A DNA stretch of 32,000 nucleotides from Rhodospirillaceae bacterium (GTDB taxonomy: Bacteria > Pseudomonadota > Alphaproteobacteria > Rhodospirillales > Rhodospirillaceae), in NCBI GenBank assembly GCA_963668495.1, contig OY764545.1, positions 1,188,219-1,220,218 on the forward strand, given 5' to 3'. The notes under the pieces were generated by a model. The model saw nothing but the letters and a program-made list of their open reading frames with translations, did no database searches and was not told the origin of the DNA. The position numbers were made by a program, and so were the translations under genes. Shown piece by piece: positions 11,378-30,788 of the stretch (its first letter is position 1; each line of letters starts with the position of its first letter).

Positions 11378-11432
11378 TGGTTTTTGAACACGCAAAACCA
11401 CGCACCAAAGACCGCAGAAATCGTTGTGTTTT

Positions 11433-11555
11433 GATGGCCAATTTCGATGAGGTTTTATGAACGCTGTTTTCTGCAGCAGGCAGGCACAAAAAAAGACGAC
11501 CATCCCACACGGGGGAGATCGCCCGACCGTCTATAACGATAAGCTGCTCAGATTT
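11433..11555. repeat. copy A of a ~125-bp imperfect direct repeat (partner at 22201-22325)
   Basis: Hand alignment shows about 14 differences (12 substitutions, 2 single-base indels) over about 125 positions. Shared core: GATGGC..ATTTCGATG.GGTTTT.TGAAC.CT.TTTTCTGC.GCAGGCAGGC.CAAAAAAA(A)GACGACC..CCCACACGGGGGAGATCGCCCG(A)ACCGTCTATAAC.ATAAGC.GCTCAGATTT. Confidence 0.85.
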
Positions 11556-11644
11556 ATTCAGCTTAAAAAATTTAGCGCTGGTGTTGCTCAAGAGAGCACA
11601 TGAAGTGGGTTGCTCTGATTCAGTTACACAAAGCCAATCGGTTA

Positions 11645-12883
11645 TTAAACCATCCCCTGAACATCAGCTACTACATGCTTCCTGCATACTGCAAGTGCAT
11701 CAAAGATCACTTCGTCCAAATCCTTCAGAACATCACAATTGAGATCGTTTTCATTAACGCCAAAGTGATCAAGGAAAAATTTTGCCGACAGTTCTTCACT
11801 TTGCTTAACAGGGCCTATTAAGCGCTCCATTTCATCCAGGTATCGAACTGAAGGGGGCGCGTATGAAATAAAGACATTTTTACGTGCTGGAGGCTTCGAT
11901 GCTTGGGCTTGATGTATCACATCCTCACTTACATAAAGCATCATCCTATTCTCAACACCTGCCCTAAAGGTATTCCATACTATTTCTTCAACCTTAATGT
12001 CTTTAATGGTAAAAAAAGCAAGTGCATATGAGATCATTTCACAAGTAAGCAGTATATTGCCATCATTATTTCTACCTTCTTTCAAAGCAGACTTAATTGG
12101 CTTCTCCAGGCACTCTACAATGCAGTCAAGAACTTCATGAAAACTATAATGATAGCATCCGGGACTAACATCAATATCAGCTTCTTCTTCAACGGCTACT
12201 CGATCTAAATATCTAATAACCGTCTGAAACTGAGAGAACGTAAGCTTTGATTTCAGTTCATCAATTTTGCTATGGTCCGCTTCTGAATACGCAACAACCA
12301 TTTCAAGTGCTGCAGTCGCCGCATCAACTTTCCAGCTACTGATCTCATCTTCAAAGGCATCAAATACAGATGTAATCGCACCAACGTCACTGCCAAACAA
12401 CTCATCTAAAATTTCATTGGTGCGCTTAATGCAGTAAGACATAAGCTCGGACAGGAACAGTTGCTTATTAACATCGCCAAAATCTTTAAAACCAATCGCT
12501 TTATACAAATGGAACGATAATCCAAGCATAGAATTATCCTGCTCCATTATTCCAAAATAAGACGAAACATTTTCTGAGTACAATCCTGAAAAATCACTGA
12601 TACTTTCTTCAATATCATTGAAATAATATTGCCTAGACTTAGCAAGAAAACTATCAATTATTTTTTTAGATGCGTCATAATCTGACCGTTTATTTACCTC
12701 ATGAATCACAAGAACTGCGTATACACAAACAAACTCCGATCGGAGCCTAATAACTTCTTTCTTTCTGCCGAGGAATTTTGGCAATGGGTATTCTAAGATT
12801 CCAGCTGCTCTTTGGATGTGTTCGTTAACCGTGATGGCATTAACCATCATCGCCAAGTCATCTCCAGCATCCTCAAAATCCAT
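11645..12883 (-). CDS. hypothetical protein, 412 aa, acidic and predicted helical, no recognisable motif
   Basis: Track ORF 11645..12895. The track start is TTG. ATG at 12883 is preceded by GGAGGAGGTA. The region is strongly AT-rich. It lies on the same strand as the integrase, 124 nt downstream of it. Confidence 0.7.
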   Translation of the reverse strand: MDFEDAGDDLAMMVNAITVNEHIQRAAGILEYPLPKFLGRKKEVIRLRSEFVCVYAVLVIHEVNKRSDYDASKKIIDSFLAKSRQYYFNDIEESISDFSGLYSENVSSYFGIMEQDNSMLGLSFHLYKAIGFKDFGDVNKQLFLSELMSYCIKRTNEILDELFGSDVGAITSVFDAFEDEISSWKVDAATAALEMVVAYSEADHSKIDELKSKLTFSQFQTVIRYLDRVAVEEEADIDVSPGCYHYSFHEVLDCIVECLEKPIKSALKEGRNNDGNILLTCEMISYALAFFTIKDIKVEEIVWNTFRAGVENRMMLYVSEDVIHQAQASKPPARKNVFISYAPPSVRYLDEMERLIGPVKQSEELSAKFFLDHFGVNENDLNCDVLKDLDEVIFDALAVCRKHVVADVQGMV

Positions 12884-13007
12884 TACCTCCTCCAATAAAT
12901 TTACAAGCCACTCAGCCAGGCAAGAAAATTTTATGTGAACTCAAAAAAACGAGTAGTAGATTAACACCAATGCCAAGCACTATGAAAGGACTTCTACAAC
13001 CGTCCCG

Positions 13008-16214: not shown

Positions 16215-17510
16215 TTAAAAATACCGTTCACAGAAACACAAACAACCATCCGTACCGGCCAGATCATCGCAAAAGTCGACCCTGAGGACTAGCTGGTTTT
16301 TCATGTGCTCATCTACTTGATGAAATTCTATTTCATATCCATTCTCAACCATATTAATTACGGCTGGGTTTGGATGACCGTATGTATTTGGTCCACTTGC
16401 TGCGTACGCAATATTCAAGGCGTGCATTTTATCTAGTACACGAGATGAAAAGTTATCTTTTGCGCCGTGATGAGGCAACATAATGACAGACGTCACAGGT
16501 AAGAATTGTTCATAATATTTCAGAAAGCAACTACGCCTTCTCTTTGCGCCAAGATGCGCATCACCAGTAAGCATCCAACCCGTCATTTCATCCATATAGG
16601 TATGAAACAAGAATCTCCGTCTCCACGGAAATTTGTCATATATTCTTCTGCAAGAGGAGCCCAAATAACACATCGAATGTACCATTTGATCTAAATAACT
16701 ACCCACATGAGATGGATGCGGTCCGATATAAAGCGTCATAGAAACTAAATTATGATTTTTCCATATTGCATCATAACAATTACGCAGTTTTTTTCGACCA
16801 TCTTCGCTGCGAAGACTTTGAATTATTTCATTTTTATCGAGCGGTGACCCAAACTCTTTAGCCAAAGCTCGCTTAAAAGCATCCATGCGCTTCACGGTAG
16901 GTTGATGCACATATGGGATCAATAACCAGTCGACACCCCTGCTAACAGTAACACCTAATACAGAATCATTTGATTGAATCCTGGATTTGTCTTCGGCATT
17001 TACGTTTCCCTCACTAGAATGCCAGGCACTTCTCAATATTTTATCACCTCCTCCATCCGGAGGTATCGATGGAGTGGGCACTCCCTCTCCATCATCATCA
17101 TTACCCTTTCTGAAAGTCACCGTTTCAATCCCACGCTCTTTAAACCAAGCAACTGGATCCGTAGCAACATCAAGAAATATGCCTTTTAACTGAGCTTCTG
17201 TGTCATCTCTAGCAACAGCAGCAATCAACATCTCATCAGAAAAATATGGAAGTACGACCTCTTTTACTTTTACTCGAGACAGTAGCTCATCAAGACCAGA
17301 GACATGATCGCTATCAAGGTGAGAAATAAATAAATAATCTATATCACCTCCCCTAGAGATAGAATTGACTTCCCGTGTTAAGGCATCGCTTTGATTAGAA
17401 CCACAGTCATAGACCCACCGAAAGCCAACCCCATCCGCACTAATCGTGCCACTGAATAAACCGCCCTGCCCAACGGCATGCTGTATCAACTCCACATTAA
17501 TCACATTCAT
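16215..17510 (-). CDS. metallo-beta-lactamase-fold hydrolase (ComEC C-terminal-like), putative effector
   Basis: 431 aa. N-terminal H.VGQGG..........W.YDCG...... then DYLFISHLDSDHVSGL (the H-x-[DH]-x-D-H metal motif) and later MLPHHGAKDN. This is the pattern of ComEC-type MBL nucleases/hydrolases. Its ATG overlaps the upstream stop (ATGA at 17507-17510). Confidence 0.8.
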   Translation of the reverse strand: MNVINVELIQHAVGQGGLFSGTISADGVGFRWVYDCGSNQSDALTREVNSISRGGDIDYLFISHLDSDHVSGLDELLSRVKVKEVVLPYFSDEMLIAAVARDDTEAQLKGIFLDVATDPVAWFKERGIETVTFRKGNDDDGEGVPTPSIPPDGGGDKILRSAWHSSEGNVNAEDKSRIQSNDSVLGVTVSRGVDWLLIPYVHQPTVKRMDAFKRALAKEFGSPLDKNEIIQSLRSEDGRKKLRNCYDAIWKNHNLVSMTLYIGPHPSHVGSYLDQMVHSMCYLGSSCRRIYDKFPWRRRFLFHTYMDEMTGWMLTGDAHLGAKRRRSCFLKYYEQFLPVTSVIMLPHHGAKDNFSSRVLDKMHALNIAYAASGPNTYGHPNPAVINMVENGYEIEFHQVDEHMKNQLVLRVDFCDDLAGTDGCLCFCERYF

Positions 17511-18382
17511 TCAGCAAGCCCTTCATCTCCAAAGAAATCAGCACGAGCGCGATCCGTAGCTTCCTTACCCATCATACTGATATTTATGCGCTGATTATCA
17601 TGTATGCTGAGGCTGTTATCCAAAATCAGACCTGCTATATCGGTTAGAAAATAACGGGCGTGCATATCATTATCGTACTGCACCAAGTGTACCGAGAGAT
17701 GATCTGCCAATGGCCCTAATGTAAACATCTGCTTCATATTTCCCATAAAGCGTTGTTCATCCCCCATGCTGTATGGTGAACGGCCGCGTCCAGCAGATGT
17801 ACAAATCCTCAGCTCAATCTGGTCAGCATCTAAGCGGCGGTATAGAACCCTAAAGATCTCATCAAACAAGTCTCTGCACTGTTGTTGATACGGATCAAAG
17901 TAAGGATCTACGATATGAATTTGTTTTGCCATGGTGAGCAAAGGATGCAAGGCAGCCATCAAGTTAGGCAATGTTTTGATCATTACGTTCGGCATACTGA
18001 CTTTGATTAGCTCATGCCCATCATCAAGTTCTACGGAGCTAACAAAACCATCCCCATCTGCATCCGATAGGATTGCCTGAAACTTATGATCATCATGTGC
18101 TAAAGTTACATTGAACTGCCATGATTGGTTATGATCGTAGTCATAACTTCTATGAAAATCCTGCAAGCAGGCTTTCTGCTCAGCCATCTGCTTAAGCTTC
18201 TCTACCACACGAGCCTTATTCATCTGGCTTGCACTATCCGCAGCCTTTATGACTTTACGCTGCCATTTTTGAGGAAAAGCAGATATTCGACGCGGATTGC
18301 CAAAATCGAATAATGCGCTGATTAACTTAAGATTATTAAAGTCGGCTGCAAACTCAGGATCAACGGCATACTCTAATAACAT
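17507..18382 (-). CDS. hypothetical protein, 291 aa, middle gene of the ATPase/MBL operon
   Basis: Good RBS (GGAGGA 11 nt upstream). The start overlaps the ATPase stop (TAATG at 18380-18384). No family recognised. The C-terminal half (IHIVDPYF....ELRICT....HARYFLTDIAGLILDNSLS) reminds me of HxK-less PLD-like / MIT_C-like folds, but this is unverified. Confidence 0.7.
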   Translation of the reverse strand: MLLEYAVDPEFAADFNNLKLISALFDFGNPRRISAFPQKWQRKVIKAADSASQMNKARVVEKLKQMAEQKACLQDFHRSYDYDHNQSWQFNVTLAHDDHKFQAILSDADGDGFVSSVELDDGHELIKVSMPNVMIKTLPNLMAALHPLLTMAKQIHIVDPYFDPYQQQCRDLFDEIFRVLYRRLDADQIELRICTSAGRGRSPYSMGDEQRFMGNMKQMFTLGPLADHLSVHLVQYDNDMHARYFLTDIAGLILDNSLSIHDNQRINISMMGKEATDRARADFFGDEGLAE

Positions 18383-19812
18383 TAGAATAATTCCTCCGCA
18401 CGTTCATCGAAGAAGCCCGTTGGCCAACGTTTAGTGAATTCACCTGTTTCATCAATGCCTATATTGGTGACTTTCATCTCATCATTCTGACTTTCAAAGA
18501 ACAGGATGGATACATCACCGTGATTGAGTTCAGGGGCATGGTCAGAAACTTCACCTTCATAAGCCTCTCTGATGCGGCGAAGAAGTCGAAGGATTAAATG
18601 CTCACTATGCGTTTCAATGAGGAACAAGCAATCACGCTGGATTTGTGATGCAAAGAGATCTCCCAATCCAACTTGAACCTGCGGGTGGACATGCAGTTCA
18701 GGCTGCTCCACTGCCATAATGCGGGTGGATCGTGATAACGCACAAGCAACCACAGGAATAAGCTGAGACAAGCCGACACCGACATCTTGCAACGTGAATT
18801 CTCGATCTGTCCCAGGGTTTACGAGCCGCACCCGAGGCTGGCGAGCCATCAAGGACCGATCACTATTCAGAATACCTTTTACATTGCTGGAACGCGTATC
18901 ATAGAGGTTCAATCCATATCCAGCATTTAGGCGATATGACGGATACAGCCAACCTGACACTAAGCCCCCCAGGTCACTTTCCGTAGAGTGTAATAGCCGA
19001 TCCCATGCTCCTAAACCATTATACCAGCGGCTTTCAGGCATGGAGGAAAGCCCTTCAAAATTACGAGGGATCATTTCTCGGATGGGCCCGATATGCCGGA
19101 ATTTTTTTAGATAATCACAGAAAACTTCTCCTACGCTTACAAGAACTTGAGAAGCAACGTGATCGCCATATTCTAGATACTCATCCCCTGTGTCCTGGGC
19201 ATATTCCAGCTTGTGCCCCCACTTGGGCAGGACCGTGCGCAAATTTGAGATTTGAATTGGTATCCATGGAGAAAATGATTCCTCAACATCATCACCAAAA
19301 ACACGCTTCAAAACAGGGTGCGTAATATCATAATCAAAGAAAGTGTTCTGCTTGGGACCATTGGGCTGGCTAAGCTCAGACGCAAATTGACCATTTATAT
19401 CGACACGATAACGAATTGGCATCGGGCAATTATCAAGGTCACTCCAGCCCATAGTGACAATCACCTTAGCTGTATCAACATACTCGCTAATATCAATGTT
19501 CTCAGGGGCTCCATAGGTACGGAGATCCACGTCACTCATGTCCAATTCGAAGGCAAGTACGACTTGTCGATCAAGGTCACGGTTATGGACAAAGTTGCGG
19601 AAGCCGCCGAGGTTAATGCCGTCACCACCTTTTTCGGTAATATCCGGATCAAAGTTGCCATTCACCAAGATCTCATAGGCTAAATGCAGAGCATGGATGA
19701 TTGTGCTTTTGCCTGTGCTATTTGCACCAAACAGCAATGTGATCGGGCGGATTGGAATGCGGATTGTATCGCCAATCCCTTTGAAGTTTGTAATCTCAAT
19801 TGCTGTTAACAT
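18382..19812 (-). CDS. ABC-type AAA_15/AAA_21-family ATPase (PtuA/OLD-ATPase-like, no TOPRIM), probably with a DUF3696-like C-terminus
   Basis: 476 aa. N-terminal I.NFKGI......I.P.TLLFGANSTGKSTIIHAL (Walker A). Distal signature/Walker B block MAVEQPELHVHPQVQ and LFLIETHSEHLILRLLRRI. C-terminal WPTGFFDE. Confidence 0.85.
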   Translation of the reverse strand: MLTAIEITNFKGIGDTIRIPIRPITLLFGANSTGKSTIIHALHLAYEILVNGNFDPDITEKGGDGINLGGFRNFVHNRDLDRQVVLAFELDMSDVDLRTYGAPENIDISEYVDTAKVIVTMGWSDLDNCPMPIRYRVDINGQFASELSQPNGPKQNTFFDYDITHPVLKRVFGDDVEESFSPWIPIQISNLRTVLPKWGHKLEYAQDTGDEYLEYGDHVASQVLVSVGEVFCDYLKKFRHIGPIREMIPRNFEGLSSMPESRWYNGLGAWDRLLHSTESDLGGLVSGWLYPSYRLNAGYGLNLYDTRSSNVKGILNSDRSLMARQPRVRLVNPGTDREFTLQDVGVGLSQLIPVVACALSRSTRIMAVEQPELHVHPQVQVGLGDLFASQIQRDCLFLIETHSEHLILRLLRRIREAYEGEVSDHAPELNHGDVSILFFESQNDEMKVTNIGIDETGEFTKRWPTGFFDERAEELF

Positions 19813-20058
19813 AATCTATTACCCAACGAATTGTTCTAGGTCGCCATATGTTGATGGCTACAAGTGTGCCTAACTATATGCATTGTCATACTGCCACCTG
19901 AACTGATGGGCAGCAGGAACGGCAGCTAGTCCTACCTTCAGCATCAATAAACTTTAAGAACGCTACTCTTGAGGGAGAATGTAGCGCGACATATAAGGGT
20001 GCGCTTGATACCATACATTGCAATTAACATAACCGCCAGTTCGCGCACCAGGAGGGAC

Positions 20059-22122
20059 ATGTTTTATTTTCTGCCACGAGGGACAATTTCAGATTTTATC
20101 AAACTTGCATCTACTTTCGTGCACCTAATAACAGATGAGAACTGTAGGGATGTCAATGAAGAGGCCTATGAAGATGCAACGACACAGATAAAAGAAGTTT
20201 TACAACAGGATGAAGGTGACCCTGTAATTGCCATATTCCAACTGATGAAAACGCTAGAAATTGCAGTTCACACGGGTGATGTTTCAAAACACATATGGCT
20301 CTTAGCTGACACAATCCATTCTGCCGTTAACAGTTGTAAAGTATGCGCCTCATTAAAAGATAAAAAGTCTTGGGGTATTGCTTTGCAGCACGCTGTATCC
20401 GCAATAAACAGCACGCAAACAGATACCTCCATGTCTATGCAATGGAGAGGCTCGATTATTGCTAGCGAACTCGTAAGGCTAAAAAGGGTAGGAATTCCTT
20501 ATGAGATAGGTGAAGGCAACCGCTTCCTATCTGAAAAAAACACCAGGAGACTGTGCCTAAGAATTGAAAAGGATATAATAAAGGTTGGTGGGGAAGCTGC
20601 AGCTAACGCACTCCTAGATCTAATGCGTAGAAGCAATAGAATTCAACACGGAATGCTAATTCATGCGAGGAGCGTATCGCAGCTATATGGAAAGTCCAAA
20701 GCAGGCACACCATGGCATTATATCTACTCCCTTTGCATGAAGCACATTGATAAGCCGAACTCTTCTCGCGATCCCGCGAAAACAATGCAACATATGGAAG
20801 ATCTATCTGTTGCCTTGGCAGCAACTTATGATGTCGAAACGCATAGTGCGTACGAATACATGTCGATTTCACCTCATTCTTTTCTATGCATTCTCAGGGA
20901 AATGATTGTTTACGATGAGTTATTCGCATTCCCGCAGATGCATCCTAGAAGTGCTGCCTTTATCCTAAAAAATCTGCTTCCGGCGCTACAAAAACACAAA
21001 CTAGAGCTGCCTATTGCTAACGATGGAATCTGGAATAGTGTTTTTGAATGGGTACTTGAAGCATCCAATGGCGCATCCATCAAAGCTGTGCATCCCTTCC
21101 AGCTACCCATGAACAATGCCTCACAGGAGGCTCTTGATAAAATATTTGCTGCACTACTGCTGAAGCCATCAAAGCGGAATCAAAAATACCTAACCCCTAC
21201 AGATACTTTTGAAAGAACCAGCACATTTTTTCCCATTATTGAGAAAGATGCCTCAACATATTTAATTCAGCCAAAAGGGATTGCCTCACGCGCTCTTATT
21301 GAAAGGCTATTTGATCTTATTCGCACCCATAATGGCGAAGAAACAGACAAAAAAATAGGGTTTGCATTCGAGACTGTAACAGAGGCTATCCTCAAACATT
21401 TCAACCTAAATGTGACCTTTTCCAACGCGAAATACATTCCGAGCAAAGGGTTTGATGCTGAGATCGACTTCGTGATTGAAACGGATGAACGAATTTTCAT
21501 CATCGAATGCAAAAAGAAACCACTGAAAACCGCATCAAAAAGAGGTGAGTATCTAAGTCAGCTTGATGACTTCAATAAAAGTTATCTCAAAATGATGGAC
21601 CAGTTAACAAAGCATGAATTGTATTTGCGGGAAAATGGAAAAATCATTTTCTCTGATAAAACTGTCCTAGAGTTAAAAGGAAGAAGCATTGAAAAAATTG
21701 CACTGAGTCTGTTGGATCATGGCTCAATACAAGACAGAACGCTTGTTTCAGAAATTTTCCTTTCCCTTATGAATGCAAAGATGGGAGCAGAAAGAAAAGA
21801 AGCTGAGAAGATTATAAAAGTAACGAATAAGCTTCTGTCCTCACTGCAAAACACCATGGGGAATTTGGAATCTCTCCCACATGATTATGGAAAAGACTTC
21901 TGGCATGGCTACATGTTTTCAACCTGGTGGTTAAGCGCAGATCAACTCTTTTTCATTTTGGAGCAAAGCAATGATTTATGGAGTGGATTGCGGCGGATAC
22001 GGCATTTAACCTACAGAACATACGATTTCTTCTATGAATTCACACAAGCAGCAAAACTGGGGGAGATCTCCTCAACCCTTGTTACGCACGCAGAGAAAAC
22101 TTCAGCCAGGGCGCAGCTGTAA
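20059..22122 (+). CDS. large hypothetical protein with a C-terminal PD-(D/E)xK (NERD/restriction-endonuclease-like) motif
   Basis: Track ORF 19969..22122 (TTG start). I prefer ATG at 20059, directly after AGGAGGGAC. Nuclease-like core: GFAFETVTEAILKHF...GFDAEIDFVIETDERIFIIECKKKPL (E ... D ... E-x-K). The ~480-aa N-terminal part has no motif I recognise. Confidence 0.7.
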   Translation: MFYFLPRGTISDFIKLASTFVHLITDENCRDVNEEAYEDATTQIKEVLQQDEGDPVIAIFQLMKTLEIAVHTGDVSKHIWLLADTIHSAVNSCKVCASLKDKKSWGIALQHAVSAINSTQTDTSMSMQWRGSIIASELVRLKRVGIPYEIGEGNRFLSEKNTRRLCLRIEKDIIKVGGEAAANALLDLMRRSNRIQHGMLIHARSVSQLYGKSKAGTPWHYIYSLCMKHIDKPNSSRDPAKTMQHMEDLSVALAATYDVETHSAYEYMSISPHSFLCILREMIVYDELFAFPQMHPRSAAFILKNLLPALQKHKLELPIANDGIWNSVFEWVLEASNGASIKAVHPFQLPMNNASQEALDKIFAALLLKPSKRNQKYLTPTDTFERTSTFFPIIEKDASTYLIQPKGIASRALIERLFDLIRTHNGEETDKKIGFAFETVTEAILKHFNLNVTFSNAKYIPSKGFDAEIDFVIETDERIFIIECKKKPLKTASKRGEYLSQLDDFNKSYLKMMDQLTKHELYLRENGKIIFSDKTVLELKGRSIEKIALSLLDHGSIQDRTLVSEIFLSLMNAKMGAERKEAEKIIKVTNKLLSSLQNTMGNLESLPHDYGKDFWHGYMFSTWWLSADQLFFILEQSNDLWSGLRRIRHLTYRTYDFFYEFTQAAKLGEISSTLVTHAEKTSARAQL

Positions 22123-22200: not shown

Positions 22201-22325
22201 GATGGCTGATTTCGATGGGGTTTTCTGAACACTATTTTCTGCGGCAGGCAGGCGCAAAAAAAAGACGACCGCCCCACACGGGGGAGATCGCCCGAACCGT
22301 CTATAACCATAAGCCGCTCAGATTT
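22201..22325. repeat. copy B of the ~125-bp imperfect direct repeat (partner at 11433-11555)
   Basis: See copy A. It lies in the 233-bp convergent gap between the 20059-22122 gene and the RT gene, beginning 30 nt 3' of the RT stop. On the minus strand it contains AGACG...CCCC-cgtgt-GGGG...CGTCT followed by T8. Confidence 0.85.
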
Positions 22326-22355
22326 TTGCGACAAAAACAAAGCAGATACTAAGAA

Positions 22356-23828
22356 TCAACTTATGGCTTCTGCACGACGCTTAAGTTCCTGTAGAACTTC
22401 TCGATAACGAGTAATGTCAGCCCCTTCTTTCAGGGCCTCAAAGCTTGATAGGTAACTCATATATCCTGTCAACCGCCGGATCAGATCTGGAGACGGCTTT
22501 TCCTCTTTCCTCGCGTTATTAAACGCTGCGCGTATCCCTCTCCTAAAATCTCGTGGAGGCCGCGCTTGTTCATTAACCACAATTCCAGTGACCCTTTGCT
22601 GGCCATGAGCACTTACTATCCTGGTTTTCCGATCATTAATCTCTAGAGCAAAGCGTTCACGTAAAAGATCACGAGCGATACCAATTGCCTGCACAATCTC
22701 AGCTTTGTTGTCGCCGCTGACAGTCAGGTCATCTGCATATCGCGAGTATGTCAAACCGACCCCAGAACAATGAGAATCCATGATCACATCAAAATCATAA
22801 AGGTATGCATTTGACAGAACTGGACTTGTAGGCGCTCCCTGAGGCAAAACACCGTGAAATGTTGACAGCTTAACAAGTATTTCAGCGGAGCGATTGCTCA
22901 AGCCATAATCCATTAACATCCGGTGTATGTTCACAGATGTCACGCTGCCGAAGAAGTCAGAAATATCAACTCCGGCCACGAACTGCTTCCCCGTATGTAG
23001 TGATGCATTGGAGTTGATCGAACCACCAAGCCGATAGGAATGCACACTCTCATGCACAGGCAAGCAAATGTAATAATAGTCAGCTAAGAACTGCTGGATC
23101 ACCTTTAAGAAGGTACGAGGGCTGTTAATGCTCCGCTTGCCACCACCACGTTTAACGAGGTCAAACTGCCTATAGTGACGAGTGGGGGCAAAAGCAATCT
23201 GTGCGATTAGCCTCGGGGAAATACCAAGCATCAATCCTATCGTTTGATAGTCCAGCTCTAGTGCAGGAGCAGGCTTCAGGGAGGCAACTGCTAACTGGGT
23301 TATATTACTAAATGACAGAAACGGAAGAAAAGAGGGGCCATGTGAGGGCTGCGATTGACCAGTTTCATCTATCAACTGCATTGAGAAGCGAGGCCAATAA
23401 AGTTGGCCTTGAGGAAGCGAAAGACCGGCTTTATTGGCCTCGCGTCCTTTTATAAAGAATCTATCATCCACAGACGGCGCAACGCCGCCCAATTCAGATG
23501 CAACATCCTCACATGACTTTATCAGTCTACCTTCACGGGACCTTTTCAGCAAGTAGAGCCTAATCTTGTCACGAGACAACCTCTTACGTTTTGACAGATA
23601 GTTATTGCCATGATCTGTAAGGGTAAAGAGATCAGGGTCGCGAGAAACACGCACTAACCGCTTCTCTTTTTCTTGGATCATACACAGCTGCTGAAACAAG
23701 CTCACATCTGGAAGCTTCCCTGCTTCGTCAAAAACAAGCTCGAAATATCTTTGCACTTCGGCTGCTGCAACTGGCTGCAGAATACCAATAGCCCAAAGAA
23801 GCAGCTCCTGATTATAGACTGACTTCAT
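22356..23828 (-). CDS. retron-type reverse transcriptase with a ~215-aa N-terminal extension
   Basis: 490 aa. RT motifs: KRGGGKRSINSPRTFLKVIQQFL; retron-typical NAxxH (SINSNASLHTG); VAGVDISDFFGSV; LPQGAPTSPVLSNAYL; YADD box (SRYADDLTVSG); retron-typical VTG (QQRVTGIVVNE). AAGGAG RBS. The ATG overlaps the upstream stop (ATGA at 23825-23828). Confidence 0.85.
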   Translation of the reverse strand: MKSVYNQELLLWAIGILQPVAAAEVQRYFELVFDEAGKLPDVSLFQQLCMIQEKEKRLVRVSRDPDLFTLTDHGNNYLSKRKRLSRDKIRLYLLKRSREGRLIKSCEDVASELGGVAPSVDDRFFIKGREANKAGLSLPQGQLYWPRFSMQLIDETGQSQPSHGPSFLPFLSFSNITQLAVASLKPAPALELDYQTIGLMLGISPRLIAQIAFAPTRHYRQFDLVKRGGGKRSINSPRTFLKVIQQFLADYYYICLPVHESVHSYRLGGSINSNASLHTGKQFVAGVDISDFFGSVTSVNIHRMLMDYGLSNRSAEILVKLSTFHGVLPQGAPTSPVLSNAYLYDFDVIMDSHCSGVGLTYSRYADDLTVSGDNKAEIVQAIGIARDLLRERFALEINDRKTRIVSAHGQQRVTGIVVNEQARPPRDFRRGIRAAFNNARKEEKPSPDLIRRLTGYMSYLSSFEALKEGADITRYREVLQELKRRAEAIS

Positions 23829-24442
23829 AGGGTTCTCCTTGGCCTTCCCCTGCCATCTTTATCGATCATCGTTTTTCGAAGGTTGAATCGGTTGATTAGC
23901 GGCTTCACATCATACGTATTGTAGTTGACATATTCTGTCTGCCCAAAGGCTGCCACAATATTGGCAGGTCCCTCATTAAAGTAGCTCTTACTGTCCTTAT
24001 ACTTTTCGTCAACGAGTAGAATGAAGTCCTTCTCAGGACCGTTTTGTTTGATGGCTCCTTTTGGATGGGCAAAATGCCAACTAAACAAGCCTAGCTCACA
24101 GAACGCACCAATTGCTGTCTTTCCAGTCACAATAATTACGGCATCACAGTATTTTGCAATGTATTGAAGCTCATTGTCTTGTGCATCTTTACCAACATGA
24201 ATGCGTGGATTTTCAAGGCCGTCATCTTCGCCAAGAACAACATCAAAGCCATTTTGTTCCAGTTCATGCTTGATCTTAGCTCTAAGGATTGCGGCCTCAT
24301 CATGTCCTGGCCTTTCTGGGTCCTCAATGACATCCTTTATTGCAGGCCCACAAAGAAACACAATGAAAGGAGTGTCCTCTGATTCTTGCAATAACGCTTC
24401 ACGGTGCATTTTAAAGGTTTCGTCTTTAAACCCAGCGGGCAT
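23825..24442 (-). CDS. nucleoside 2-deoxyribosyltransferase-like (NDT/Rossmann-like) protein, putative retron effector
   Basis: About 205 aa. FIVFLCGPAI (compare the YLAGP N-terminal motif of NDT-like proteins) and CDAVIIVTGKTAIGAFCELGLFS (compare D.vv..l.....G...ElG.A). The gene order NDT-like then RT is that of type II (Sen2-like) retrons. ATG at 24442 shares its A with the hsdS TGA; the track's GTG at 24445 is the alternative start. The domain call is by eye only, and a TIR-like/SLOG fold is an alternative. Confidence 0.55.
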   Translation of the reverse strand: MPAGFKDETFKMHREALLQESEDTPFIVFLCGPAIKDVIEDPERPGHDEAAILRAKIKHELEQNGFDVVLGEDDGLENPRIHVGKDAQDNELQYIAKYCDAVIIVTGKTAIGAFCELGLFSWHFAHPKGAIKQNGPEKDFILLVDEKYKDSKSYFNEGPANIVAAFGQTEYVNYNTYDVKPLINRFNLRKTMIDKDGRGRPRRTL

Positions 24443-25629
24443 CACAAGTCTCCACGAAATGCGCGTTGGGAGAGGGACGAAAACAACTGATCACATGCTT
24501 CAAGGTCAGTTGAAAGTTTGACCCCAAGAAGCCGAACTTTATCAACGATCCGTCTATATTCTTGCTGTAGCTCAATAGGCGGGATCGTAATACGAATTTC
24601 CTGAACTTCTTGCGCGTTGATATTCGCCATACCCACGATATTTTTGCACATCCCTCTTAGAGTCGCCTTGCCGTGGTTTGAATTTAAATACCCTGATATG
24701 TAGTACGGATCAGCCAGATCGTTGGCTCTCATACGAACGAGATAACCAGCAAAAGCGTATTGCTCATCTCGATCAAATACAGCCGTTTTTCCTACAAGTT
24801 CCTTGCTATTCGTTCTGTTAAACAGGATATCGTCTGCACTAACGAGGTACTTACTATGTTCATGCTCAGGAAGATCAATGTACTTTAAATCAGATGTATC
24901 AATCCTGCCTTCATAGGTCAGGTTTCCCATCCTTAGAATTGGGAATTGCCCGTTTTGCACATCGGCCTTTGCTGAGGTCCCGTACTTTGCCTCAGAAACA
25001 AGATCTCTAATCGTGCCCATTGGCCAGCCTTTTGGGTTCGTCACAGGATCGCCGAACATGTCGAGGAAGGTTGCGCGAAGGAAATCGTCGGCCAGTTGTA
25101 GGGCTTGCTGGCGTTTGCGGCGGATGGCGTCGGCCTTATCCAAAATCGCAGCAATCCGCTTTTGCTCTTCGAGAGGGGGCAAAGGAATCTGCAAATCTGC
25201 TAGCTTTGCTTTGTTGAGCGTTTTGCCCATAACAGCCCGGTCAGTCCCTTGCATTAGGTCAATGACCTGCAATGACCAATAAAGATATTTTGCATCAAGT
25301 AAGGTGCCGTTCTTAATTGGAAGAGCCGCGATTGCCTCATTGGTGTAAATTGGCACCCCAGAAATAGCTACCTTTCCAATTGATAATTTAAAGCTTAACA
25401 GCACCGTTCCAGCCGAAACAATTTTACAGTTGCATTCCTCAACTGCTGCGTCAGAGATGCGCTCCTTCGTACGGGAAACACACTCGTCACCTTTCATATC
25501 GGAAATAGCTAACCACGGGTTAGCCCCACCCCAATATCTTGTTTCGTTCCTTGATGGTGTTTTACCTATGTTTATTTCGCATAGGTCAGCTAGACGACAC
25601 CCCTTCCAACCATATTTTTTTGTGCTCAC
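24442..25629 (-). CDS. hsdS: Type I restriction-modification specificity subunit
   Basis: 395 aa. Two target-recognition halves are separated by the conserved central helix ([44 protein letters not shown]). The protein ends with the conserved distal helix ([16 protein letters not shown]...[14 protein letters not shown]). The GTG start overlaps the hsdM stop (GTGA at 25626-25629). Confidence 0.92.
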
Positions 25630-27140
25630 CCCAGCATCTCCTCAAGGTCTTGCATGTCTTGAGCGATATCGGCGTGAAGGGCCTTCATACGAGCAAGGAT
25701 TTCCTGCGGTGGATCGTATTCTTCTTCCTCGTACACCACTTCTTTGTAACGGCTGAGGGAGAGGTCGTATTTTTTGGCCTTGATCTCCTCGGCTGACACA
25801 AAGAACGCTTTGCTGCTTTTATCTGTATCGTTCTGTGGATCGCGCTCTTGCCAGCGTTTCAAGCAGTCGGGTAGATCGTTCTCTGCCACTTTCTCCCGCT
25901 TATCATCAAGACTGAAACCATCGGCCTGCACATCATAGAAAAACACGTTGTCCGTCTGACCGCCTTTGGTGAAAACCAAGATAGCAGTGGAAACACCTGC
26001 GTAGGGCTTGAACACACCAGACGGCAGCGAGATCACAGCCTCCAGCTGGTTTTGCTCGATCAGCATTTGCCGCAAAGCCTGATGCGCCTTGGAAGAGCCA
26101 AACAATACACCATCTGGCACAATGGTTGCTGACCGTCCGCCCAATTTCAGCATCCGCAGGATCAGAACGAGAAACAGCAGTTCCGTCTTTTTAGTTTTGA
26201 CGTTGGCCAGCAAGCTAGGGTGGACATCATCGTAATCGAGGCTGCCCTTAAACGGTGGGTTGGCAAGGACCACATCCAGACTGTCATTGGCAAACTGCGG
26301 GAAACGATCCGGGAAGTTGTTGGCCAGCGTATCTTGATAGTGAATATCCGGCGCATCCACACCATGCAGTAACAGATTCATGGCGGCAATGCGCAGCATG
26401 GTGGCATCAAAGTCAAAACCATGAAACATGCCCCGGCGCATATGCTCCCGCGCCTCGTCACTCAGCAAGTCCCCGGTGTAGGTGGTTTCATCGGTCACTT
26501 CGTCAACGATAACACCCTCCGGTGAGGTGTTCTTCCTCACCAGGTACTTGGCAACCTCCACCAAGAAACCAGCCGTGCCACAAGCCGGATCACCAACAGT
26601 TTCCATGGGTTGCGGCGCAACGATGTCGATCATCAGGTCAATGATATGACGCGGTGTGCGGAACTGACCGTTGATGCCTGCAGTGGTCAGTTTGCTCAAC
26701 AGGTATTCGTACAGGTTGCCTTTGGTGTCTTCATCGCCCAGTGGCAGATCGTCGATCATCTCCACCGCCGAAACCAACAGGCTCGGCTTTTGGATCATCA
26801 ACTGGGCATCTTTCATGTATTCGCCAAAGGTCGCCCCGTCGACCATGGTGGTCCTGAAGTGCGGGAAGACCCGATCCCGGACCAGTGGCATCAGTTGCTC
26901 TGCGCCCATGTGACGAAAATTGGACCACCGCAGGTCTTGATCCTCTGGCCCGAATAGACGCGGGAAGTCCTTACCGGACAGGCGAGCCTTTTGCTCGTTC
27001 TTGATTTCGGTCATATCCAAGTGGCGGGCAAACATCAGGAAAGTGATCTGCTCGATCACCGTCAACGGATTGGCAATGCCGCCCGTCCAAAATTCGGTCC
27101 ACAGTTTGTCGATACGACTGCGCAAATCACCTGTAATCAT
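25626..27140 (-). CDS. hsdM: Type I restriction-modification N6-adenine DNA methyltransferase subunit
   Basis: 504 aa. HsdM N-terminal domain ([25 protein letters not shown]). SAM motif ([12 protein letters not shown]). Catalytic NPPF ([10 protein letters not shown]). The ATG overlaps the hsdR stop (ATGA at 27137-27140). Confidence 0.96.
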
Positions 27141-30100
27141 TGGAGGGTACTTTCATCACTACTACTGTTGAGGTTGCCTTGCGGCTTAAACGTTTTGACA
27201 ACGTTCAGCAAGTCCTGACGTTGTTCATCGTTCGGGAATAGACCAAATACGCCCAGTTGATCCAGTTTAGTGAACGGAGAGTCAACCAGCTGCTCAACCT
27301 CAACACTGCCGTTCTGGGCAATCAAGCGTTCCAGAAGGCGTAAAAACTGGGTTTGCTTGGCGCTGAGCGAAGGGTTGCGATGGACAAACTCCTGGAACCG
27401 ATCCCGCACCGCGTCCACATCCATGCCAATGATGTTACGGATAATCAGGTCCAGATGATCAGCTAGATCCGGGTAGAACTCCCGCAGAATATTCAAATCC
27501 ACATCCGGGTGTTCGGTCAAAACCATGGAGATCAAACGATCAAGGTCGGTTTGTGATACGGGTTGCCCTGCCCGGATCTTCTGCAAAGTCGGATCTTTAT
27601 CAAACAGCGCGCTCAGGGCTTCTTCTACCCGTTTGCGGTAAACAGCCTGATCAATGGAGATGAGCCCTGTTGTCGTCTGTCCTGTTCGGATGCCATCCGG
27701 GTCTTCCTCAATATCGATAACCTTTGGCGTGATGGGTTTTGCCGAAGATGTGTCCTGATACTGCATAATGGATCGCAGCTCTGTCCGTACGTTTTCCAGC
27801 TGTGCCAGCGAAACCGCAGCCCAGAACGGGCCAGACTTCACTTGCTTGATGGTTTCCGCTTTGGCCTTGACCTGATTGAGGTTCATACGCAAGCGGTTGA
27901 CAGCGTTCAGCAGATCGCCCTTAAGACCCTCAAAGGCTTGTGTTTGCTGGATCAGGGCGGTTTGCATCTGGGTCATCAAAAGGTCAAAACCATAGGCGTC
28001 GCTTTGTCCACGGATATTGATCCACTGCGTCAGGGGGCTGATCTCTGCCCGTAGGGCCTGCACAGTCATGGGGTCAAATCGCTCGATCACGCCTTGTTGT
28101 TGGATGGTTAGGACTTCCTGCCACTTTTCCCGCACAGCAATACTATCCGCAGGCAGACTGTTAACGTCCTGCTCCAGCAGCTTTACCGTGTTGTTGAAAG
28201 AGTCCAGTTCCGGTGCGTTCAGGGCGGCCTCAGCCAAATCAATCCGTGCGTTGAACAGGCGTTGCATCAAAGACGTTGGGGCTGATGGTTCGGCTTCCGG
28301 CTTGTTCTGCTCGAAGTACTCGAAATTTGCCCAATGGTCAAAAATGCGGAATACGGACTTATCAAGTCCCGGACCAAACAAATCTTCACATAGGCGAGTG
28401 CCACGTCCGATCATCTGCCAGAACTTGACCTTGGACTTCACAGGCTTGGCAAAGACCAGGTTGACCACTTCCGGTACATCAATGCCCGTATCCAGCATGT
28501 CCACGGAGATCGCGATGGTCAGATCCTTGTTGTTGCCATCACCTTTGAAATCATCAATCAGCTGCTCTGCACGAGGATCATGATTATCGATGACCTGACA
28601 GAACTTACCGCCATACTGCGGGTAGAGTTCGTTGAATAACTTCTCCAGTATCTTGGCATGGGTATGCCTGCGGGCAAAAATGATGGTTTTCCCAGGAAGT
28701 TGTCCGCTGGCGTCGCGGATACCATTTTCCATCAGGTTACGGATGATGTGGCGACCCGTGTCTTTATTGAATACTTTGTTGTCAACTTCATTGGCCTCAT
28801 GGTCCAAATCTTCATCGGCTTCGCCATCTTCCTCAAGCTGTGCCTTTTGCTCATCGGTCAGGTCTTTGTAGTGGATGCCATCACGCAGGAATTTGGTGGT
28901 GTGGGTGAAAACCTCATAGGGCACCAGCCACTCGTCCTTAACCGCATCTTCCAATGCGTAAAAGGCGGTGGGGTCCTGATTACTACAACCAAACAAACCA
29001 TATGTATTGCGAGAGATGAACTCGACAGGGGTTGCCGTCAGGCCAACCTGAAGCGCATCGAAATATTGGAAAATCTGACGGTAGCGATTGTAGATGCTGC
29101 GGTGGCTCTCATCGGCAATAACCAGATCAAAGAACCCCACATCAAACGCCTGAAAGATCGACTGCATGGCCGGATATGTGGCGACAAAGATGCGGCTCGT
29201 GTTGTCGTTTACAGACCTGCGCGAGACCACAGTCAGCGGTTCGCTCATGTTGTCGTTGAAAGCGTTCTTGGCCTGCTTCACCAATTCCTTACGATCACAG
29301 AGGAACAGAATACGTTTTGCCCAGTTTGCCCGCACCAACAAGTCCGTTAATGCAATGGCAACGCGGGTTTTCCCTGTGCCTGTGGCCTGAACGATCAAAG
29401 CTTTTCTGTGCTTGCTGCTGAAATTCTCACAGACGCGCTTGATGGTTTCGACTTGGTAGATCCGCCCGGCGATTTCTGCTTTTGGCGTGAAGGTATCAAG
29501 CTGCGCCTTATTGCTGCGCTGAAACTTGGCAAGATTGTGTAGGCTAGACTTGGAATAGAAGCCGAACAAAGGACGCGGAGGATAGCCCTGCGCATCATCC
29601 CAGATCCAAGTGTTGTAACCGTTGGTGTAAAAGATGACTGGGCGAAAGCCGTAGGTTTTCTCTAATCCCTCGGCATACAGCTCTGCTTGTTTACGGCCTT
29701 TCTCCTCGGACACGGATGTTTTCTTGGCCTCGATCACAGCCAGCGGCAAACCATCATCATCCCACAGCACGTAGTCGATATAGCCAATGCCCGTTGGATT
29801 GGGCTGGTGTTCGACTTTTTGCTCCAGCGTAACTTGATCCGGCTTATTGATATCCCATCCAGCCTCTGCCAGCGCCACGTCAATCAAACGCTTACGGGTT
29901 GTGGCTTCATCATACTGGAGTGCATCAGCAACCATCTGACTTTTGGCGGTGGTTTCGGCTTCAACAGCTAAGGCTTCATAATCTGCTTTGACCTTTTCAA
30001 GTGCAGCCAGTGCTTCCTCTAACCTAGCTTCGGTTGCCTTTTGCTCTTCAACGGCAGTGACCGCCTCGGCCTGCTGGTCTTTCGGCTGCTGGAATTTTGC

Positions 30101-30493
30101 AATGTCTCGCGGTTGTTGCCCTAGGCACCGCACAGCAAACCAGGCTGACGCCTCGAACAGCTCCTGAACAATCCAAAGGGCAGCTTGCGTTTCAACAGTC
30201 CCACCGTGGGCGGCCTTGTTGCCCTCTTTACGGGCGGCATGGAGTTTGTTGCGGATGACCGGGGGAACTGCGCTTTCAAAAGGCTTGGTGCGGAGGAGTT
30301 CGTCGAAAGTTGCACCTTGCGCCTTTTCGAGTCTCAGTTCCCAGTAGATGGCTTTGGTCAACTGTTCGGCAAGGGTGCGTAGTTTAACAAGGGCGCTAGC
30401 GGGATCTGCGTGGGCGTACTGTTCAGCAAAGCCGCCCAAATCAGCCAAGATCGGGCGATCCTTACGCAGGATCTCGAAATTCACAGACTCCAT
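27137..30493 (-). CDS. hsdR: Type I restriction enzyme R (endonuclease/helicase) subunit, with a DUF4145-like N-terminus and an EcoEI-R-type C-terminal region
   Basis: About 1118 aa. PD-(D/E)xK nuclease ([22 protein letters not shown]). SF2 motor: Walker A ([13 protein letters not shown]), DExH ([10 protein letters not shown]), later motifs ([13 protein letters not shown]). Track start GTG at 30496. The adjacent ATG at 30493 is better spaced from GGGGGA. Confidence 0.96.
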
Positions 30494-30788
30494 CACATCC
30501 CCCAGCAGACAAACTTAATACGGCAGACTATCACCAAACTCAGTGGTTGTGAAACGTCTTAGAATGCATGTGCTTAGCCGACATTCATCCCATTACAGAT
30601 AGATATTACTACCCTGAAGGCGCTGGAGGTTTGGCTTTGGCGTCGTGATGCCCTTTCTGGCGGAGGCCGGGAAGGGCTTTTATATGGAGGCTGTAATGGC
30701 GATGATGTCCATCCCGACGGCTCTGGTATTGGCGAAGCTGGTGCTGGAAGCCGCCGAAGAACTTACCAAAGACGATATCTAATCTACC

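Follow-up and report, generated by a model that had tools for sequence, protein, structure and literature searches.

The window analysed in this study is a 32,000-nucleotide stretch of DNA from a Rhodospirillaceae bacterium (contig OY764545.1), in which three tightly coupled genes encode an ATP-binding cassette (ABC) ATPase, a middle protein (MID), and a ComEC-type hydrolase of the metallo-β-lactamase (MBL) fold. A sequence-only reading of this DNA had proposed that the three genes form one undescribed defence system. Judged by the homologous loci that we compared, the recurring unit is a two-gene pair of ATPase and MID, not a triad. With somewhat more confidence than doubt, we explain the pair as an anti-phage module of ATPase plus phospholipase D (PLD) nuclease, of the kind of Menshen NsnBC and HEC-03, beside which the MBL gene is an independent neighbour. 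To the same degree, we favour the view that the triad is an accident of neighbourhood. Of this picture, the domain identities, the PLD fold, the conservation of the motifs and of the pair, and the lack of a conserved third gene are shown by the present analysis.

The overlaps and motifs on which the sequence-only reading was built were all found in the sequence. The ATPase stop and the MID start are joined at TAATG with one nucleotide in common (junction ...TTC TAATG TTA...), and the MID stop and the MBL start are joined at ATGA with a 4-nt overlap (junction ...GAATGAATG...). The motifs LLFGANSTGKST, EQPELHVHP, ETHSEHL, WPTGFFDE, IVDPYF, HARYFLTD, SHLDSDH, and LPHHG are all present in the three proteins. 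Overlaps of 1-4 nt occur at every neighbouring minus-strand gene pair from hsdR through the retron reverse transcriptase (RT) gene, including hsdS and the retron NDT gene, which are members of different systems. Therefore, a stop/start overlap is no marker of a shared system here; it is the local norm and not proof of one system.

To describe the MID family, profile searches were needed, as a word-indexed protein search with MID gave 3 matches. Against 1.84 billion representatives, the MID profile matched 1,740 sequences at E≤1e-3, of which 964 reached E≤1e-10; all are roughly 280-330 aa long and align end to end. Counted as clusters at 50% identity, the family numbers 1,740 or more, and it is encoded on both chromosomes and plasmids, in Proteobacteria, Deinococcota, and Planctomycetota-type metagenome-assembled genomes. 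We then compared 39 other MID loci (L001-L005, L030-L059, L060, L061, and the RefSeq plasmids L067 and L068), with open reading frames (ORFs) called by a simple script. Immediately before MID, 31 of 36 clustered loci (counting the window itself) encode an ATPase homologue, and the remaining five contigs hold less than 1 kb of sequence there. The two genes overlap by 1 or 4 nt in nearly all loci that have both, and the order of ATPase then MID was the same in L060, L061, L067, and L068. Identities to the window proteins in L001, L003, and L005 fall together, from 69 to 64 to 53% for the ATPase and from 53 to 46 to 40% for MID. By contrast with this pairing, the third gene of the proposed system was missing: an MBL family member was present in 0 of the 39 other MID loci, and an ATPase or MID homologue in 0 of 24 other MBL loci (L006-L029). 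The sequence-only reading had itself named failure of co-conservation as what would refute it, and since the three genes are not co-conserved elsewhere, its triad is not supported.

The same reading held that the triad is unnamed, and indeed the three genes together are covered by no model in PADLOC, Pfam, or NCBIfam. Neither did we find a model in these libraries, or a paper, that names the ATPase-MID pair, whose members are labelled 'AAA family ATPase' and 'hypothetical protein' in RefSeq. Scans of viral contigs gave no MID relatives, and a megablast search of the three-gene operon against E. coli genomes gave no match. In four metagenome loci (L047, L048, L051, and L055), the ATPase or MID gene is disrupted or frameshifted; the ATPase is split in L048, and a reverse-strand ORF takes the place of its 3' end in L047 and L051. 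These broken copies may be decay or assembly errors.

The ATPase matched Pfam AAA_15 (1e-19), AAA_21 (2e-14), and, at its C-terminus, DUF3696 (2.7e-8). Its best PADLOC match was NsnB (6.8e-44), followed by PDC-M55A (6e-35), HEC-03B (2.9e-29), and AriA (4e-20), and matches to the AriA, GajA, and PtuA models were partial. BLASTP aligned it over its full length with the validated HEC-03 ATPase (26% identity, E 3e-21). The earlier placing of the ATPase in a clade with AriA, PtuA, and GajA was thus upheld by both Pfam and PADLOC; that list of relatives had left out the closest systems, Menshen and HEC-03. By these matches, the protein is an ABC ATPase of the NsnB/HEC-03 (DUF3696) type.

The window ATPase has Walker A at G29-T37 (Lys35), an Arg at the Q-loop place (GPIR245), a GxG signature (DVGVG), Walker B as VEQPE (E369-Q370), and an H-loop ETHSEH (H402), and its C-terminal DUF3696 carries WPTGFF. 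Nineteen family members share the same features: Walker A GxNSxGKS, YIGPxR with Arg for the ABC Q-loop, the signature DVGxGxSQ (GxG, not SGG), Walker B hhhhEQPELHxHP (E-Q, not D-E), ETHSEH, and WPxGFF. The E-Q-P-E in place of D-E (window 19264-19278, ATPase residues 369-372) was seen in every intact aligned family member, and the HEC-03 ATPase also has E-Q-P-E in its Walker B. The change of E to Q is the classic hydrolysis-dead substitution in ABC ATPases. Because Walker B is E-Q instead of D-E, a slow-hydrolysing switch is suggested, and the clade may act as an ATP-binding switch.

MID had no Pfam or NCBIfam match, and PADLOC holds no model for such an effector. PADLOC gave weak matches to the BrxL C-terminus (4.8e-5, model positions 555-670 of 698) and to NsnC (0.031), and nothing meaningful came from Pfam searches with 25 family members or from searching PDB sequences with the MID profile. 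We therefore turn to its structure model, which AlphaFold2 (AF2) predicted with pLDDT 95.5 and pTM 0.90; an earlier AF2 run from 3 sequences had left the N-terminal 132 residues unmodelled. The model has an N-terminal alpha/beta domain (1 to ~130), in which A6, P9, P37, W40, and W88 are invariant, and a C-terminal single-copy PLD fold (~132-290). The top Foldseek matches in the PDB were all of the PLD superfamily, namely SauUSI, Streptomyces PLD, human PLD2, and TrmBL2 (E 4e-4 to 1e-2, probability 0.99-1.0). The PLD motif of MID is H241-A-R243-YFLT-D248, an H-x-R(x4)D with Arg in place of the Lys of HxK(x)4D. H241 and R243 are invariant in 86 sequences, and D159 is nearly so. The hint of a PLD-like/MIT_C-like C-terminus was borne out by the AF2 model with its PLD matches and by the weak BrxL and NsnC matches. 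In the model, the C-terminal half of MID is a PLD fold, for which catalysis is predicted. The sequence-only reading had seen MID as a middle component joining the ATPase to the hydrolase; it is more likely an effector than an adaptor, and the modelled fold suggests that it is likely the PLD nuclease effector of the ATPase.

Of the characterised systems, Menshen resembles the pair closely. It has been reported that Menshen NsnB departs from standard ABC motifs by Walker B EN, Arg for the Q-loop, and GxG, and that NsnC consists of an N-terminal inactive-PIN-like (inPIN) domain and a C-terminal effector, which in some variants is PB-PLD1/MIT_C-like; the PB-PLD1 class has D/E and HDR motifs (Li et al., NAR 2025, PMC12065111). 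AlphaFold 3 (AF3) predicts an NsnB4-NsnC2 complex in which NsnC is held at its N-terminal domain by paired DUF3696 helices, and partner genes in Menshen are extremely polymorphic (PMC12065111). The window pair likewise has a DUF3696-tailed ABC ATPase with an Arg Q-loop, GxG, and an altered Walker B, whose best PADLOC match is NsnB, and a two-domain partner with a C-terminal single-copy PLD fold bearing Asp and H-x-R. The order of ATPase then effector, the translational coupling, and the frequent association with type I restriction-modification (R-M) are also alike. However, the Walker B of the window family is E-Q and that of NsnB is E-N, MID matches the NsnC model weakly (0.03-0.002), and the ParB-DUF262/ParBDB protein NsnA is absent from the window and the 39 related loci. 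Pfam found no DUF262 among the neighbours in the window or the upstream genes of related loci, and no ORF bearing DGxQR lies beside any ATPase-MID pair. Because NsnA is absent, the pair is not Menshen as defined. The Menshen census was seeded from DUF262 (PMC12065111) and so would have missed these loci.

HEC-03 is a two-gene system that protects E. coli and requires both genes; it is embedded in Hma/type I R-M loci and works without the surrounding system (Payne et al. 2024, bioRxiv 10.1101/2024.01.29.577857). Its ATPase in Pseudomonas cichorii is annotated as 'DUF3696 domain-containing protein'. As in the window, a DUF3696 ABC ATPase is followed by an overlapping small protein of nuclease fold in or near R-M-type systems, and the ATPases share EQPE, GxG, and HSEH. 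The partners differ, being a 157-aa VapC-like PIN protein in HEC-03 and the 291-aa MID with a PLD domain here. The MID profile aligned to the HEC-03 PIN protein with an hhalign probability of 2.3%, and no PIN match was found in Pfam. The pair is thus not HEC-03, since its effector is not a PIN protein.

PARIS (AriA-AriB) and Septu (PtuA-PtuB) share the general plan, in which an ABC ATPase oligomer holds a nuclease effector until a trigger releases or activates it, and the N-terminus of the window ATPase matches the AriA and PtuA models in the P-loop and signature regions only. Their effectors, however, are TOPRIM/DUF4435 (AriB) or HNH (PtuB) proteins, and they have no DUF3696 clamp. Pfam, PADLOC, and NCBIfam detected neither a TOPRIM nor an HNH domain in the three window proteins, so the nuclease of PARIS, Septu, or Gabija/OLD is absent. 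The label of ABC-three-component (ABC-3C) system was also considered. In the papers that we found, ABC-3C is Lamassu (LmuA-LmuC-LmuB), which resembles the window locus in having an ABC-superfamily ATPase and polymorphic effectors, some of them MBL-type LmuA. In contrast, LmuB resembles SMC proteins and has a coiled coil and LmuB_C, the Lamassu middle component falls in Pfam MC families, and the effector is fused N-terminally to the LmuA core. No LmuB_C or MC Pfam match was found on the ATPase or MID, and LmuB is outside the top 25 PADLOC matches of the ATPase. A true Lamassu in one MBL locus (L006) shows the expected LmuB-type matches. The label was rejected, as Lamassu is a different ATPase clade whose defining parts were not detected here.

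From the AF3 model of Menshen NsnB-NsnC and from PARIS and Septu, we infer a physical complex of ATPase and MID, a trigger, activation by dimerisation, a substrate, and phage protection by the pair. An oligomer of the DUF3696 ABC ATPase would keep MID inactive, with paired C-terminal DUF3696 helices clamping the N-terminal alpha/beta domain of MID. A phage cue, which could be an anti-restriction protein or foreign nucleic acid, would shift the ATP-bound state of the putatively slow-hydrolysing ATPase. PARIS senses the anti-restriction protein Ocr, and because of this and the R-M linkage described below, an anti-restriction trigger is a reasonable first guess. MID would then be freed or repositioned, and the PLD domains of two MID copies would come together to form a full active site. 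MID would need this second copy because each PLD domain brings one HxR(x4)D half-site; Nuc and BfiI, which are single-HKD nucleases, build their active site by pairing in this way. The active MID dimer would cleave nucleic acid and halt the infection.

We next consider the gene that follows MID. It differs from locus to locus and is an MBL gene in the window only. In L001, the closest locus, it encodes a 307-aa GIY-YIG/T5orf172-like protein; in L002 it is a convergent HNH gene; others encode HATPase_c_3/SduA_C-like, Fic, RtcR, Dcm, or NACHT proteins, or SIR2-DUF87 in L067. The best-surviving alternative, which we regard as unlikely, is a lineage-specific three-component system in which the MBL protein was captured as a second effector or processing nuclease and the slot after MID is polymorphic, with the GIY-YIG-like gene filling it in L001. 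The co-orientation of the post-MID gene in 20 of 25 loci and the documented polymorphism of Menshen partners would fit such a slot. However, most downstream genes belong to other systems or regulators (the Fic, RtcR, Dcm, NACHT, and SIR2-DUF87 genes) and lie across gaps of 10-250 nt, and nothing co-oriented follows MID in L002, L044, L046, and L048. In addition, overlaps join unrelated systems within the window, as at hsdS and the retron NDT gene, and the MBL family has its own, different neighbourhoods.

Several observations weigh against our two-gene explanation. The MBL and MID genes share the ATGA overlap, their orientation, a similar GC content, and the same repeat-bounded element, for which reasons co-transcription of the MBL gene with the pair is likely. 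The nuclease-like gene of L001 also overlaps the MID stop by 4 nt, a possible sign that the third slot is variable. The N-terminal domain of MID was unmatched to PIN or any other fold, and MIT_C (PDB 2YMB) was absent from the Foldseek list of MID. The loci sampled beyond the window were mostly short metagenome contigs.

The identification of the third protein as a ComEC-type MBL was sound. It matched Pfam Lactamase_B (2.5e-7) and the C-terminal part of TIGR00361 (3e-7, far below the cut-off of that model), and its family profile matched solved ComEC MBL domains at 7.5e-8. The metal-motif residues H64-x-D66-x-D68-H69, D317, H347-H348, and H379 are invariant in 25 homologues. It has the MBL fold and the HxDxDH, D, HH, and H motifs of the ComEC and MBL effectors (Avs1a, PDC-M48B, MBL-type LmuA, and RT-associated MBL), and the ComEC MBL domains are its nearest solved relatives. 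Unlike these, it is soluble and stands alone: the membrane and OB domains of ComEC are missing, no partner gene is fixed, and its scores fall far short of the family cut-offs for Avs1a and ComEC. Scanning genomes with the single MBL protein gave nothing, and an alignment-based scan was needed to find the loci. The family has about 220 proteins, most of them from Alphaproteobacteria, which share about 45% identity with the window protein; scans of viral contigs gave only distant relatives (22-33% identity). The C-terminus of the window protein extends ~19 aa past all 24 aligned homologues (…FCDDLAGTDGCLCFCERYF, window 16215-16275), and its stop codon abuts the stop of a convergent P4-type integrase (16214/16215). 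The extension and the abutting integrase stop make the 3' end of the gene look rearranged.

The MBL gene is often the last co-oriented gene behind unrelated defence systems (L006-L029). Its upstream genes encode PifA (1e-191), Druantia DruE, type I HsdR, short pAgo (3e-213), AbiU2, Ppl-like and LmuB-like ATPases, a PLD protein, and an HNH/EVE protein, and no neighbour cluster is common to more than four MBL loci. A second alternative is that MBL-family proteins are promiscuous 'tail' accessories, encoded at the 3' end of unrelated defence operons and serving the upstream system, here the pair, for instance by breaking down DNA once that system has done its work. The neighbours show such an asymmetry, as the upstream gene shares the orientation of the MBL gene in 20 of 23 loci and the downstream gene in 9 of 22, and the upstream genes are diverse complete systems. 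The MBL gene of L015 also overlaps its upstream ORF by 4 nt. However, gaps are mostly 40-480 nt, which leaves room for a promoter of its own, and co-orientation is common in defence islands. The 23 loci include several closely related ones, and ORF calls are crude in these GC-rich loci. Moreover, no mechanism ties one hydrolase to PifA, pAgo, and DruE alike. We rank this alternative second and consider it doubtful. We likewise give little credence to its bolder form, in which the ComEC-like MBL would be a system-agnostic 3' add-on nuclease and here a third component, translationally coupled to an ATPase-PLD system that lacks NsnA; if true, it would reveal a modular 'tail effector' layer in defence that current system catalogues have missed. 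From its separate neighbourhoods, the MBL protein is probably an independent defence-island nuclease and not a conserved partner of the pair.

The pair was also linked to type I R-M. Where the upstream sequence is long enough, about half of the loci (L001, L003/4, L005, L044, L045, L056, L057, L060, L067, and the P0243 locus) have the pair after hsdR-hsdM-hsdS, directly or one variable gene later. By clustering of L001, L003, L005, L044, L045, L056, and L057, the R-M beside other pairs is of the same EcoEI-type family as that of the window, and the identity ranks of HsdM/HsdR agree with those of ATPase/MID across loci. The frequent position right after type I R-M suggests a back-up of R-M. The extra genes between hsdS and the ATPase gene are mutually unrelated and encode a 283-aa membrane protein with a weak Saf_2TM match (L003 7181-8032), a 253-aa protein (L005 7142-7903), and a 469-aa protein (L045 2987-4396).

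In the window, a direct repeat of ~135 bp flanks a segment that holds the pair. The copies are ~88% identical and share an exact 22-nt core (0 expected by chance), and the 10.8 kb between them comprises the 416-aa ORF, both integrases, the MBL, MID, and ATPase genes, and the 717-aa gene. The retron and type I R-M genes fall outside. From this arrangement, the segment looks like an integrative element with the three genes among its cargo, and the repeats may be the att duplication of a nested element. Because the repeats place the pair on a separate element, its adjacency to the R-M of the window may be a hot-spot effect. An order of R-M then pair, with the retron inserted between, was also considered and is weakened by the same placement. 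On its minus strand, each repeat copy has a hairpin and a T-run just 3' of a gene; in the right copy, the hairpin is followed by a T8 run.

A third alternative makes the pair a type I R-M accessory, a PrrC/RloC-like back-up or regulator needing Hsd, of which the window copy is an orphan or uses the nearby R-M; the hsdS linkage and the agreeing identity ranks speak for it, but we find it very improbable, as about half of the loci with sufficient upstream sequence have no R-M (L039, L043, L046, L052, L061, and L068), the repeat-bounded element excludes R-M, and HEC-03 functions without its surrounding system.

On the explanation that we favour, a one-off 'triad' gives way to a widespread, testable two-gene family. 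To the Menshen/HEC-03 DUF3696 ATPases, the pair would add a form that lacks NsnA and has a single-site predicted PLD nuclease, which offers a simple model of an ATPase gating an effector that must dimerise. That ATPase-effector pairs are polymorphic is well established; what is new is a large unnamed family with a likely PLD effector that has no library model. The 'tail gene' pattern of the MBL family offers a lead of its own.

The defence-island setting of the three genes is real, as the sequence-only reading had stated. By window composition, they lie in a low-GC island that contains a type II-A retron, type I R-M genes hsdR/M/S, two integrases, and a tRNA-Met. The features are listed in Table 1.

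Table 1. Positions of the three genes and of the features around them in the window
Feature	Position	Strand	Details
ATPase ORF	18382-19812	minus	476 aa
Middle protein ORF (MID)	17507-18382	minus	291 aa
MBL-fold hydrolase ORF	16215-17510	minus	431 aa
Type I R-M hsdR-hsdM-hsdS	24442-30496	minus	Pfam; HsdR EcoEI-type with DUF4145
Retron type II-A, NDT-like effector	23825-24445	minus	NDT 1e-31 (PADLOC)
Retron type II-A RT	22356-23828	minus	RT 8.9e-141 (PADLOC)
717-aa protein	19969-22122	plus	C-terminal NERD/PD-(D/E)xK-like region; Pfam NERD 1e-4
416-aa ORF	11645-12895	minus	adjoins 549-aa DUF6538-type integrase
~135-bp direct repeat, left copy	11432-11565		candidate att-like boundary
~135-bp direct repeat, right copy	22212-22335		immediately 3' of retron RT gene

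The retron lies directly after hsdS, with stop and start overlapping. Rfam found no retron msr/msd non-coding RNA in the window, the tRNA being the sole RNA matched. The 416-aa ORF sits in the lowest-GC stretch of the window (0.38) and had no match in Pfam, PADLOC, or NCBIfam. The gene of the 717-aa protein is divergent from the ATPase gene and is not kept beside the ATPase-MID pair in other loci. The protein showed weak GapS1 and CARF-PDDEXK matches, and it may be a separate single-gene defence candidate.

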